Positions 60,689 to 63,733 of a DNA stretch of 64,000 bases are shown here, piece by piece. The DNA lies in assembly GCA_049510065.1 (NCBI GenBank), contig JBEKZH010000010.1:17653-81652 (forward strand). The letters run 5' to 3'. The translations under genes were made by a program, and so were the position numbers. The notes below the pieces were generated by a model that worked only from the letters and a program-made list of their open reading frames with translations, did no database searches and had not been told where the DNA came from. Source of the DNA: Bryobacteraceae bacterium (GTDB lineage Bacteria; Acidobacteriota; Terriglobia; Bryobacterales; Bryobacteraceae). Positions within the stretch are counted from its first letter, which is position 1. Every line of letters starts with the position of its first letter.

Positions 60689-62078
60689 ACAGAACGCCAT
60701 CGAGCTGACCGGCGGGACCGTCGGCGAAGTGCTTGGCGCGCTCACCTCGAAGTATGGGGAGCTGCGCCGGCACCTGTACACCGACGAGGGCCGGTTGCGC
60801 AGCTTCGTGAATGTCTACGTTAACGACGAGGATATTCGGTATCTCGAGAAGGACGCCACGCCGCTGAAGGACGGCGACACGGTGTCGATCGTCCCGAGTA
60901 TCGCCGGCGGGAGCGCGGGTGTGGCCGAACCGGTGGCTGCGGCTGCGCTGAGCAAGGACGAGATCCTGCGCTACAGCCGCCACCTGATCATTCCCGAGGT
61001 CGGGGTGGAGGGCCAGCTCAAACTGAAGCAGGCGAAGGTGCTGCTGGTGGGCGCGGGCGGGCTGGGCGCGCCGCTCGGTTTGTATCTGGCGGCAGCGGGC
61101 GTGGGGCGAATTGGCATCGTCGATTTCGACGTGGTGGACTTCACCAACCTGCAGCGGCAGGTGATCCACGGCACCAGCGACGTGGGGCGCAAGAAGCTGG
61201 ACTCCGCGGCCGACTCCATGCGTGAGATCAACCCGAATGTGCGGATCGACAAGTTCGAGGTGGCGCTCACCAGCGAGAACGCGCTGGACATCCTGAAGGA
61301 TTACGACCTGGTGATCGACGGCACCGACAACTTTCCCACGCGCTATCTGGTGAACGACGCGTGCGTGTTGCTGCACAAGCCGAACGTGTATGGGTCGATC
61401 TTCCGCTTCGAAGGACAGGCCACGGTGTTCGCGTACGAGGGCGGGCCGTGCTACCGCTGCCTGTATCCCGAGCCGCCGCCGCCGGGTCTGGTGCCGAGTT
61501 GCGCCGAAGGTGGCGTACTGGGCATTCTGCCGGGCACCATCGGCTTGATTCAGGCCACCGAAGCGGTGAAACTGATTCTGGGGATCGGCGAGCCGCTGGT
61601 GGGGCGCCTGCTGTTGTACGATGCTCTGGGGATGCGCTTCCGCGAGCTGAAGCTGCGCCGCAATCCCGAGTGCCCGGTGTGCGGCGATCATCCCACGGTG
61701 ACGAAGCTCATCGACTATCAGCAGTTCTGTGGAGTGGTGAAGACGGAGACGCCAGTGGGTACCAGCGACATCGACCCTGTTGACGTGAAGGCGAAGTTCG
61801 ACCGGCACGATTCGTTCGTGCTGCTGGACGTGCGGGAGCCGCACGAATACCAGATCTGCCGCATCCCCGGGTCGATCCTGATTCCGCTGGGCGATTTACC
61901 GAAGAGGGTGGCCGAGTTGGATTCGTCCAGCGAGATTGTGGCTCACTGCAAGATGGGCGGGCGCAGCGCTAAGGCGGTGGAGTTCCTGCGCCAGACGGGC
62001 TTTAAGAAGGTCCGCAACATGAAGGGCGGGATACTGGCGTGGAGCGATAGGGTGGACCCGACGGTTCCGAAGTATTAA
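60642..62078 (+). CDS. moeZ: Fusion of a CysO/MoaD-type sulfur-carrier (ubiquitin-like, ...SIAGG) to MoeZ/MoeB-type E1-like adenylyltransferase with C-terminal rhodanese
   Basis: aa 1-90 (...FVNVYVNDEDIRYLEKDATPLKDGDTVSIVPSIAGG) closely resemble M. tuberculosis CysO. They are followed directly by LRYSRHLIIPEVG...LLVGAGGLGAP...CxxC pairs...rhodanese (CKMGGRS). The start overlaps mec by 47 nt. Confidence 0.85.
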   Translation: MPRILIPTPLRQFADKQNAIELTGGTVGEVLGALTSKYGELRRHLYTDEGRLRSFVNVYVNDEDIRYLEKDATPLKDGDTVSIVPSIAGGSAGVAEPVAAAALSKDEILRYSRHLIIPEVGVEGQLKLKQAKVLLVGAGGLGAPLGLYLAAAGVGRIGIVDFDVVDFTNLQRQVIHGTSDVGRKKLDSAADSMREINPNVRIDKFEVALTSENALDILKDYDLVIDGTDNFPTRYLVNDACVLLHKPNVYGSIFRFEGQATVFAYEGGPCYRCLYPEPPPPGLVPSCAEGGVLGILPGTIGLIQATEAVKLILGIGEPLVGRLLLYDALGMRFRELKLRRNPECPVCGDHPTVTKLIDYQQFCGVVKTETPVGTSDIDPVDVKAKFDRHDSFVLLDVREPHEYQICRIPGSILIPLGDLPKRVAELDSSSEIVAHCKMGGRSAKAVEFLRQTGFKKVRNMKGGILAWSDRVDPTVPKY

Positions 62079-62080
62079 GA

Positions 62081-62299
62081 TTGGGCATGGGAAGCGTTTT
62101 CGATCTGAGCCCGGCTGAGAAGCTCCAACTGGTCGAAGATCTTTGGGACGATCTTGCCGCCGCGCCAGACGCCGTGCCGGTTCACGACTGGCAGAAGCAG
62201 GAACTGGCACGCCGAAAAGCCAATCTTCAGAGAAACCCCGCATCGGCAGTGCCTTGGGAAGAAGTAAAGCAAAGGGTACGCGCGCGGTATGGACGTTAG
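62081..62299 (+). CDS. Addiction-module antitoxin (TIGR02574-like)
   Basis: LSPAEKLQLVEDLWDDL...VPVHDWQKQELARR is the signature of this antitoxin family. Overlaps the toxin start. Confidence 0.75.
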   Translation: MGMGSVFDLSPAEKLQLVEDLWDDLAAAPDAVPVHDWQKQELARRKANLQRNPASAVPWEEVKQRVRARYGR

Positions 62300-62588
62300 G
62301 CTGGTCCTTGCGCCGGACGCTGAACTCGATATTGCCGAAGCCTATGTCTGGTACGAAACCCGCCGGGTCGGGCTGGGCGAAGAGTTCCTCAATTCGGTAG
62401 ATGCCTGTATGGAGCGGATTCGCCGTCAGCCGGCGATCTATCCTGTCGTTCATGAGGCGTACCGCCGTGCCCTGATACGACGATTTCCGTATGCCGTCTT
62501 CTTCGAGTACGCGGAAACAACGGCGACAGTCTACGCCGTATTTCACACTTCCCGCGACCCGGAGAAGTGGCGCCAGCGCTTGCCGTGA
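62289..62588 (+). CDS. RelE/ParE-family type II toxin
   Basis: AELDIAEAYVWYE...RRFPYAVFFEY...TVYAVFHTSRDP is the ParE/RelE pattern. Confidence 0.8.
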   Translation: MDVRLVLAPDAELDIAEAYVWYETRRVGLGEEFLNSVDACMERIRRQPAIYPVVHEAYRRALIRRFPYAVFFEYAETTATVYAVFHTSRDPEKWRQRLP

Positions 62589-62685
62589 GTCGCACTTAAG
62601 GCCACGGCCGCGCGACGACTACACGGCGCCGTCGCCTGAGATCGAACCATCCGGGTTGTGGGCCCGGGTGTTAGGCTGGACAACA

Positions 62686-63309
62686 ATGAGACTCCCACAG
62701 TTCGATGACCTTCCTTTCAATTCCCGGCCCGATCTCACACCTTACCTGATTCACCTGACCAAGAATACAAGAGTCGACGATGATTATTCTGCTCTGCAGA
62801 ATCTGATTGAAATTCTCCAGGCCGGTGAGATCTGGGGAAGCGACACCTCAAAAGGTTTCATCAAGGGACCGCATACCGCCGCATGTTTCATGGACGTTCC
62901 TTTTCAAGCGCTCAAGTACGTGCTGACACCTGAGAACTCCGACCCGCAAAAGCCACGGTACGAACCATATGGCATCGTTGTTACAAAGAAGTGCGGTTAC
63001 GAGCACGGGTGCCGTCCGGTTCTGTATCTCTCGAACGAAGAGACGGTGAATCTCCGCATTCCTGCTGACGAGCTGTGGCGGGTGGTGCGTTTCGAGGTAA
63101 CGGCGGAGGGATGGATCAGTTGGCAGCATGAGAGGGAGTGGCGATGCCGAGGGAACTTCAAACTTCCGGTGAAGATTCCGGCTGTTCTGGTGAGGACATC
63201 AGCTGAGGCGGCGGACCTGTTGGAGCGGCTGGCGGGGGACCCGCCGTACCGGTGTAAACCTCGGTCCGTTATCCCTCTCAATGTGATTTGCCAGGGATTG
63301 CTAAGCTGA
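62686..63309 (+). CDS. Hypothetical protein, AbiGi-like/DUF2971-like candidate abortive-infection protein
   Basis: ATG at 62686. Ordered motifs YLIHLTK, ACFMDVPF, YGIVVTKKCGYEHGCRPVLY and HEREWR match, as I recall it, the layout of AbiGi-type proteins. AT-richer codon usage. Confidence 0.5.
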   Translation: MRLPQFDDLPFNSRPDLTPYLIHLTKNTRVDDDYSALQNLIEILQAGEIWGSDTSKGFIKGPHTAACFMDVPFQALKYVLTPENSDPQKPRYEPYGIVVTKKCGYEHGCRPVLYLSNEETVNLRIPADELWRVVRFEVTAEGWISWQHEREWRCRGNFKLPVKIPAVLVRTSAEAADLLERLAGDPPYRCKPRSVIPLNVICQGLLS

Positions 63310-63411
63310 AACTGCGTTCTGCGGGCACGAGATGAAGACTGGCGTAGCAAATGCGTAGCAGTCTCCGCGCAAATGCGATCGAGATTCAACGCCCTCTTAA
63401 CGTGGGGCGGT

Positions 63412-63733
63412 GGACACCAGCGATATCGACCCGGTTGAGGTGAAGGCGAAGTTGGACCGGCGGGACGCGTTCGTGCTGCTGGACGTGCGCGAGCCGCACG
63501 AGTACCAGATTTGCCGCATTCCGGGGTCGATCCTGATCCCGCTGGGCGATTTGCCGAAGAGGGTGGCCGAGCTGGACGCGTCCAGCGAGATTGTGGCCCA
63601 TTGCAAGATGGGCGGACGCAGCGCGAAGGCGGTGGAGTTCCTGCGCTAGGCCGGCTTCCGCAAGGTGCGGAATATGAAGGGCGGGATTCTGGCCTTTGGC
63701 GACAAGGTGGACGCGAGCGTTCCGAAGTACTGA
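63412..63733 (+). pseudogene. Degenerate duplicate of the moeZ rhodanese-domain 3' end
   Basis: Colinear with 61758-62078, with no indels and roughly 85-90% identity by eye. It has no upstream E1 domain. An in-frame TAG (63646-63648) replaces the CAG codon, and W->F and other substitutions follow. Confidence 0.8.

Follow-up and report, generated by a model that had tools for sequence, protein, structure and literature searches.

The 64,000-nucleotide stretch of DNA from a soil member of the Bryobacteraceae analysed here, called the window below (contig JBEKZH010000010.1 of assembly GCA_049510065.1), carries near its right end a cysM / JAB / cysO-moeZ cluster, behind which a small group of addiction- and defence-type genes (islet 1) is enclosed between two copies of the 3′ end of moeZ. 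Islet 1 is not a discrete element but the uppermost of three layers in an array that continues past the window. The copies of the moeZ 3′ end are named tails A, B and C, from proximal to distal, and L numbers designate the contigs and loci that were compared. Within the window the locus comprises the following features.

59273–60220, plus strand: cysM-like cysteine synthase dependent on pyridoxal phosphate, first gene of the cysM / JAB / cysO-moeZ cluster (Pfam PALP, E 5e-69)
60227–60688, plus strand: Prok-JAB (Mec+-like) metalloprotease (Pfam Prok-JAB, E 1.5e-26), overlapping the start of cysO-moeZ by 47 nucleotides (nt)
60642–62078, plus strand: intact cysO-moeZ fusion of 478 amino acids (aa) (Pfam ThiS + ThiF/E1 + Rhodanese)
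61755–62078, plus strand: tail A, the proximal repeat copy and functional rhodanese-coding 3′ end, from the repeat comparison
62087–62299, plus strand: Unstab_antitox-family antitoxin, 70 aa from the ATG at 62087, with an alternative TTG start at 62081 (PF09720, E 2e-20)
62289–62588, plus strand: ParE/RelE-family toxin (Pfam ParE_toxin, PF05016, E 1.1e-7, 32.7 bits against a cut-off of 23)
62686–63309, plus strand: AbiGi-like protein of 207 aa (Pfam AbiGi, 17.4 bits, below the cut-off of 22.4; PADLOC AbiGi, E 1e-4)
63310–63409, no strand: spacer ending in the only novel (putatively illegitimate) junction of islet 1, at about 63405–63415, from comparison with the sequence upstream of tail A
63410–63733, plus strand: tail B, apparently the displaced former moeZ 3′ end, a pseudogene (TAG at 63647–63649; comparison with tail A)
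63743–63841, plus strand: relic of a FitA-like ribbon–helix–helix (RHH) antitoxin gene, about 32 first codons followed by a premature stop (homology to the L088 and L180 genes)
63882–64000, minus strand: 3′ end of a DUF2971 gene (241 aa, extending to window-equivalent 64607), first gene of islet 2 (Pfam DUF2971, E 5.6e-12; L001 13241–13966)

A first-pass annotation of the window had proposed that the 3′ end of moeZ recurs on the far side of the islet, and a repeat search followed by a recount bears this out. Tails A and B form a colinear direct repeat of 324 nt at an offset of 1655, with no indels, 46 mismatches (about 44 had been counted by eye) and 85.8% identity, and their homology runs out about 4 nt past the stop codons (TAAGAT / TGAGAT). 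The bias towards third codon positions that had been reported is equally real: mismatches at positions 1, 2 and 3 number 8, 7 and 31, respectively (the position-3 excess has a binomial P of 2.5e-6), and 93 of the 107 residues are identical. Tail B is interrupted by its in-frame TAG (LRQTGF becoming LR-stop-AGF) and has nothing resembling an E1 domain upstream, in agreement with its earlier description as a decaying former 3′ end; the spacer preceding it bears no similarity to the sequence preceding tail A. The 1.33 kb between the tails is AT-richer, as annotated, with 57.4% GC compared with 63.6% for moeZ and 61.9% for the window. No second gene-tail duplication was detected by the repeat search in the 64-kb window, where the moeZ case stands alone, and Rfam, promoter and terminator scans of the region yielded nothing informative.

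All the sequences considered here derive from metagenome assemblies, which raises the question of a chimera joining two co-occurring strains at the conserved rhodanese segment. However, three contigs (L001/L003, L005 and L006), obtained from different samples and with different assemblers, show the complete two-copy arrangement, one of them coming from a strain diverged by 2–3%, while three more contigs (L002, L004 and L007) cover portions of it, making five samples in total. A chimera would, moreover, need shared k-mers at the junction between the spacer and tail B, and none are present. Because the two-copy arrangement is seen on multiple contigs from different samples, it is not an assembly artefact, and a chimeric origin is barely credible.

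The cargo of islet 1 had been named as an antitoxin, a ParE/RelE toxin and an AbiGi-like gene. The first two assignments hold, both families scoring above the Pfam cut-off (72.9 bits against 23.3 for the antitoxin). The two genes overlap by 11 nt with the antitoxin first and, being adjacent, overlapping and small with both families above the curated threshold, they are a predicted type II toxin–antitoxin (TA) pair of the ParE + Unstab_antitox kind. The third assignment is sub-threshold in Pfam, and its PADLOC match extends over 55 residues; no AbiGii partner is present, no further islet open reading frame (ORF) matches PADLOC, and the gene is followed by the 100-nt spacer and then by tail B. 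The AbiGi-like protein belongs to a family unusually well conserved between phyla, with 723 homologues, 62–82% identical, from Acidobacteriota, Planctomycetota and Proteobacteria. Members from Acidobacteriota, from Planctomycetota and from Alpha-/Gammaproteobacteria are 62–70% identical to one another, the gene being solitary in mobile or defence contexts (L168–L174), and some homologues, 64–75% identical, carry a precomputed PF10899 hit. Among the neighbours are an IS91 transposase with an integrase, a Rep gene with an integrase and a type IIG restriction–modification system, and an AbiE/GmrSD island. Judged by this distribution, the AbiGi-like gene is a horizontally mobile gene of the defence-island type; in none of the contexts examined does a homologue lie next to moeZ. 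NCBI lists one of the homologues as a DUF2971 protein. The relatedness of the AbiGi-like and DUF2971 cargo proteins is not significant (E 0.059).

The array could be followed beyond the window on JGI contig Ga0427951_000909 (L001), which is identical to the window over the overlap (L001 coordinate = window coordinate − 50641) and extends 10 kb past the window end. In window-equivalent coordinates it adds the following features.

64718–65182, minus strand: orf154, 154 aa, no Pfam hit (L001 contig)
about 65281–65423, plus strand: tail C, a third moeZ-tail fragment (alignment and direct reading)
65443–68040, minus strand: MacB (L001 contig)
68037–68396, minus strand: PadR (L001 contig)
68503–69285, minus strand: PfkB (L001 contig)

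PfkB is followed on L001 by a rotamase and more housekeeping genes, and the moeZ–PfkB gap of the source genome measures 6.4 kb. The main segment of tail C, 110 nt long (L001 14652–14761), matches tail A at 83% identity; the final 21 nt of moeZ with a stop codon are also retained (17 of 21 matches), while about 115 nt have been lost internally. A by-eye reading in which tail C begins with the GTGGATACC motif of tail B was not upheld on alignment, the left edge being too eroded to place. The three tails all lie on the plus strand and share a common stop-codon end, and different cargo follows each. The farther a tail lies from moeZ, the more it has decayed: A is intact, B has acquired one stop codon and C has suffered internal deletions. 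The two minus-strand genes of islet 2, DUF2971 and orf154 (L001 13241–14541, window-equivalent 63882–65182), may form a two-gene defence or addiction module. From L001 14473 onward the islet 2 of L005 is highly divergent, which suggests a further recombination breakpoint.

The substitution pattern of the tails bears directly on their origin. Compared by the Nei–Gojobori method, tails A and B have a synonymous divergence (dS) of 0.51 and a non-synonymous divergence (dN) of 0.072, that is, an ω (dN/dS) of 0.14; for the E1-domain region of moeZ, comparison with L088 and L089 gives the between-species orthologue values of dS 0.44–0.48 and ω 0.07–0.08. Because of this low dN/dS, and because the dS matches the orthologue range, the tails are judged to have diverged under purifying selection, as working genes of separate related lineages, rather than by decay in place. 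A tandem duplication of the moeZ 3′ end in situ, after which one copy decayed neutrally and the cargo was inserted later, predicts roughly equal divergence at the three codon positions and an ω near 0.5, neither of which is observed. It is true that, when set against L088 and L089, the two copies are each other's closest match among the sampled sequences, by a small margin over their nearest relatives. Nevertheless, the tail of L180 is nearer to each copy than the copies are to one another, and the two copies are colinear with different sister-genome junctions. The substitution pattern and the comparisons with L180 and L182 effectively refute duplication in situ, which we regard as very improbable.

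These junctions come from two further lineages within the 90%-identity cluster of the source MoeZ, L180/L181 (95% aa identity) and L182–L184 (93%). In L180/L181, moeZ is followed by a full-length FitA-like RHH antitoxin gene, a 356-aa gene, PfkB and a rotamase, with downstream synteny that agrees with L001; in L182–L184 it is followed, at the same 9-nt spacing as in the window, by an Unstab_antitox gene (antitoxin 89% aa identical). Tail A together with its antitoxin gene is colinear with L182 through the stop codon (85% over 674 nt). Tail B together with the RHH relic is colinear with the moeZ tail and RHH gene of L180 (82.3% over 441 nt) and with L088 as well, in which the relic is homologous to a full 79-aa gene directly 3′ of moeZ (74.6% over 71 nt, E 1.6e-5; Pfam FitA-like_RHH). 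Remnants of a displaced self-tail were found neither in L180/L181 nor in L182–L184. On these alignments the tails are xenologous, and each keeps company with the gene that lies downstream of it. Since both tail–cargo junctions occur unduplicated in sister lineages, the boundary between the spacer and tail B (about 63410) is the only novel junction of islet 1. The earlier suggestion that an inserted element brought its own replacement 3′ end is thus sustained in one respect, in that the functional end arrived with the islet or belongs to a different lineage, and abandoned in another, namely that the element is discrete.

As for polarity, we infer that the former resident end is tail B, tail A having arrived with islet 1 from a related species. 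A resident tail B is the parsimonious choice because the junction of moeZ with an RHH gene occurs both in a sister lineage (L180) and in an outgroup (L088), and because tail B is decayed. Eight diagnostic residues of the L180/P0243 MoeZ C-terminus are common to tail B and missing from tail A, whose eight states differ from those of tail B and L180/P0243, six of them differing also from P0242/P0244. Alternatively, tail A and islet 1 may be vertical, while tail C and the roughly 430 nt formed by tail B and the RHH relic would be inserted fragments of the moeZ regions of relatives. Such a reversal would be consistent with the arrangement of L182, where moeZ is normally followed by Unstab_antitox, and with tail A being as near to L180 as tail B at the nucleotide level. 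It would, however, require two homology-free insertions of moeZ-tail fragments, both landing behind moeZ by chance; it also runs counter to the parsimonious ancestral state, to the clade-consensus residues kept in tail B and to the gradient of decay from A to C, which fits displacement. We consider it improbable.

The array has also been exchanged between strains. L005 differs from L001 by 2–3.5% in moeZ and orf154, but the two are free of substitutions over a block of 2,111 nt (window 61778–63889, P ~1.6e-18), the sole difference being a 27-nt indel polymorphism in the spacer (63365–63391). The block takes in tails A and B, islet 1 between them and the RHH relic, and it ends 156 nt beyond tail B. 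Because it sits inside diverged flanks, it indicates recent homologous exchange of the islet region between the L001 and L005 strains, and it directly supports the homologous recombination between relatives that the first-pass annotation had offered as an alternative. Up to 61778 the functional tail of L005 has native-type bases, as in L180 and tail B, and from 61784 it has A-type bases, whereas L001 has its own bases from at least 61730 onward. Judged by four sites only, the left crossovers of the two strains appear to differ by at least 50 nt, a difference more in keeping with homologous recombination that stops at a homology cliff than with a fixed att core.

Empty sites exist, as expected from the earlier proposal: in the more distant Bryobacterales L008, L026, L039, L102 and L105, moeZ and PfkB are directly convergent and lie 3–73 nt apart. 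Cargo at the same site varies as well, other relatives carrying 1.3–3 kb of unrelated ordinary genes between moeZ and PfkB, including a SpoIIE phosphatase and an M20 peptidase. TA modules directly 3′ of moeZ are common in the family, with RHH genes in L088, L089 and L180, PhD/PIN in L176 and PSK/PIN in L178. The gap between moeZ and the convergent pfkB/thiD-like gene is an insertion hotspot in Bryobacteraceae. In Terriglobales, a convergent 128-aa gene begins the sequence 86–316 nt or less behind moeZ in at least 10 relatives with an empty site, and two loci display parallel, independent duplications. L068 contains an amylase-like gene and a 279-nt moeZ-tail copy that is 89% identical (30 mismatches, 23 of them at third positions; dS 0.49, ω 0.07); L067 contains MacB/PadR and an 80-nt tail copy. 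The cargo of both is of a housekeeping, non-mobile type. Together with those of the three-layer array, these make four events, whose left boundaries (−323, about −262 to −296, −279 and −80) are all different. A metagenome scan of 80 loci disclosed no additional duplications, and an orphan-tail search with a 106-aa tail query gave no new cases, the five contexts examined all being moeZ genes split by frameshifts. In the long-read-style assemblies L175–L179 (ENA ERZ250394xx–ERZ250395xx), apparent frameshifts split moeZ into two to five ORFs and yield false 'stand-alone rhodanese' database proteins.

The first-pass annotation had likened the locus to tRNA-targeting islands inserted by an integrase, and this part of the proposal is not supported. 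The precomputed Pfam annotation of L001 shows no Phage_integrase, resolvase or transposase family in the 10 kb on either side of moeZ; four tblastn queries (three tyrosine integrases, one IS91 transposase) gave no match in the window, L001, L067 or L068; and neither the L067 nor the L068 locus has a recombinase. A recombinase, for which the first-pass annotation had advised looking beyond position 64000, is absent from the 10 kb that L001 adds, and a scan of viral contigs identified none carrying a moeZ tail as an attP candidate.

The relic of a site-specific integration nonetheless deserves consideration, in which small cis-mobilizable elements with an attP-borne moeZ 3′ end would have been inserted at a core near 61755–61783 by an integrase since lost or acting in trans, successive integrations giving rise to a tandem array. 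The precedent is e14, like phage 21, at the icd gene of E. coli (icd / icdC), where the insert carries another version of the 3′ end, differing mostly by synonymous variants, with which the gene stays functional, and the original remains as a pseudogene at the far end (PMC13626634). The moeZ locus resembles it in that 3′-end direct repeats flank the insert, the proximal copy being functional and the distal one a pseudogene; likewise, moeZ has been preserved through repeated insertions at one gene. The cargo is of the kind typical of mobile and defence islands, with AbiGi-like homologues lying beside integrases elsewhere, and in L005 an identical 23-nt stretch is present in both copies exactly at the left edge of the repeat, as an att core would look. 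Conversely, the e14 prophage spans 15 kb, encodes an integrase and has been shown to excise on SOS induction, whereas the moeZ unit measures 1,655 bp, has a 324-nt repeat, is stacked three deep and contains no recombinase gene next to an att site, nor any within 10 kb. The same putative core has three mismatches between the copies in L001, the inter-strain block runs on past tail B instead of stopping at an attR core, and no phage or provirus carries a moeZ tail. Nor would one attachment site readily account for four different left boundaries, for the housekeeping-type cargo of L067 and L068, or for the same tail–cargo junctions in sister genomes that lack a displaced tail. Site-specific integration is the main rival reading, possible but rather unlikely.

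A related precedent is provided by the cis-mobilizable elements (CIMEs) that accompany ICESt1/ICESt3 in Streptococcus thermophilus, where the site is the 3′ end of fda. These are islets free of recombination genes, arranged in tandem and bounded by repeats of the gene 3′ end; the repeats are bona fide att sites of a known integrase family of integrative and conjugative elements (ICEs), and related intact ICEs occupy the same site. The moeZ islets are similarly small, repeat-bounded, devoid of recombination genes and placed in tandem at the 3′ end of one protein-coding gene, but no such ICE or integrase was found at moeZ. Hotspots flanked by core genes, for their part, turn over through flanking homologous recombination. 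The moeZ–PfkB gap shares with them its variable cargo, its empty, small and large states and its exchange between strains; two-sided homologous replacement, however, leaves no duplicated tails, whereas the stacked tails of moeZ record one-sided events.

We therefore favour, with about even confidence, sequential 3′-end displacement at the moeZ/PfkB hotspot. DNA from a related species, consisting of a moeZ 3′ end and whatever lies behind it, would have recombined in, its left end anchored by homology within moeZ and its right end joined illegitimately inside the resident moeZ tail (homology-facilitated illegitimate recombination, HFIR). The incoming tail would then become the working 3′ end, while the resident tail and its old neighbours would be shifted downstream to decay. 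Three such layers may be distinguished: the youngest, made up of tail A, the Unstab_antitox/ParE pair and the AbiGi-like gene; a second, with tail B, the truncated RHH antitoxin gene, DUF2971 and orf154; and a third, with tail C and MacB/PadR, next to PfkB. Once finished, the array would spread among strains by ordinary homologous recombination in its flanks. We infer one-sided homology from the single novel junction per layer and from the absence of a recombinase in the searches described above.

This scheme has close counterparts in Rhs, CDI (contact-dependent growth inhibition) and type VI secretion system (T6SS) loci (Jackson 2009; Poole 2011; Kirchberger 2017, PMC5361080). There, too, a constant 5′ part is followed by displaced 3′ fragments, each with its old downstream genes and the newest module proximal; no recombinase is present, HFIR has been proposed, and finished arrays later move between strains by homologous recombination, the same displacement mechanism and subsequent spread having been put forward for the T6SS/Rhs arrays (PMC5361080). 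The moeZ locus has the corresponding structure: an intact gene precedes two displaced 3′ fragments that share its orientation and are followed by genes of their own, the fragments being xenologous and the distal ones more decayed. It differs in what is displaced. In the polymorphic-toxin loci the 3′ end is a variable toxin-domain payload with an immunity-gene partner; here it is a conserved housekeeping rhodanese domain serving as homology anchor only, the payload consists of separate genes (TA, AbiGi-like, DUF2971, MacB/PadR), and the host gene encodes a sulfur-carrier activating enzyme of Acidobacteriota.

Several observations weigh against sequential displacement. The tails are equidistant from L180 (88.5% nucleotide identity for tail A, 89.7% for tail B), so that polarity is unproven by distance, and at the 46 sites where they differ L180 matches A at 20 and B at 24. 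A donor with a contiguous, unduplicated A-type tail, antitoxin, ParE and AbiGi-like gene was not found. The att-like 23-nt identity in L005 must be set on the same side, as must the possibility of an integrase encoded elsewhere in the genome and acting in trans, given that the recombinase search was limited to the four tblastn queries and precomputed Pfam. The parallel cases are single contigs of metagenome-assembled genomes with no independent confirmation, and in L067, where the nativeness of the distal copy was tested, the proximal and distal flanks both align to the relative L060. Finally, tail duplications are rare, occurring in only 3 of about 170 surveyed loci, and HFIR is itself rare in experiments.

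The cluster upstream of the array is widely conserved, cysO-moeZ orthologues having 61–95% aa identity across Acidobacteriota and cysM lying upstream of moeZ in most of the related loci tabulated. The N-terminus of MoeZ bears an in-frame fusion to CysO, a sulfur carrier of the ThiS type, with an internal ...IAGG|SAG... motif at residues ~87–93, and the fusion is conserved across Acidobacteriota (about 170 related loci). Should the carrier need an exposed GG C-terminus, the CysO–MoeZ fusion would have to be cut by the JAB protease encoded next to it. In the related Terriglobia genome L032, a second cysM–JAB pair is found about 3.8 kb upstream of the canonical cluster (4883–6198 and 8689–10004).

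The window contains other repeats. A palindromic element of about 100 nt is present in three copies (25374–25473, 29869–29967 and 59049–59147), with arms GGCTAATTCGGGGACGG ... CCGTCCCCGAATTAGCC about 66 nt apart; six arm matches were counted where 0.03 were expected by chance, and perfect 22-nt arms occur at 59047/59128. The third copy lies about 125 nt upstream of cysM and has no Rfam match. The element looks like a repetitive extragenic palindrome (REP) or miniature inverted-repeat transposable element (MITE), or a shared regulatory hairpin. A tandem array at 23223–23806 has a period of 108 nt (two 54-nt half-units), 5.4 copies and 88% matches; its period is a multiple of 3 and the array may therefore encode an 18/36-residue repeat protein. 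A direct repeat of 118 nt with 72% identity (47519–47636 and 48386–48503, 867 nt apart) may reflect paralogous domains.

Displacement of gene 3′ ends is a known process; here it is met at an unusual gene, with no recombinase in sight. The pattern is thereby extended from polymorphic-toxin loci to a housekeeping sulfur-transfer gene. Two cautions for annotation follow: stand-alone 'rhodanese-like' ORFs behind moeZ may be displaced pseudogene tails, and direct repeats of a gene 3′ end do not in themselves count as evidence for an integrase-driven island. It is tempting, if doubtful, to speculate that gene-tail displacement constitutes a general, recombinase-independent route by which TA and defence cassettes are loaded behind housekeeping genes in Acidobacteria and perhaps in other soil bacteria. 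The 3′ end of moeZ may then act as a portable homology handle that moves with its cargo between species diverged by about 10–14%, and the only tail pairs to persist may be those diverged enough to suppress repeat-mediated deletion, dS being close to 0.5 in both clear cases. The stop codon of tail B would likewise penalize most excisions, because a crossover to the left of the TAG would truncate MoeZ, and the two effects combined would lock the islet in place. Sequential displacement would mean that, in this little-studied phylum, small addiction and defence islets are built and stacked by recombining in a neighbour species' version of the locus, with no dedicated mobility gene.

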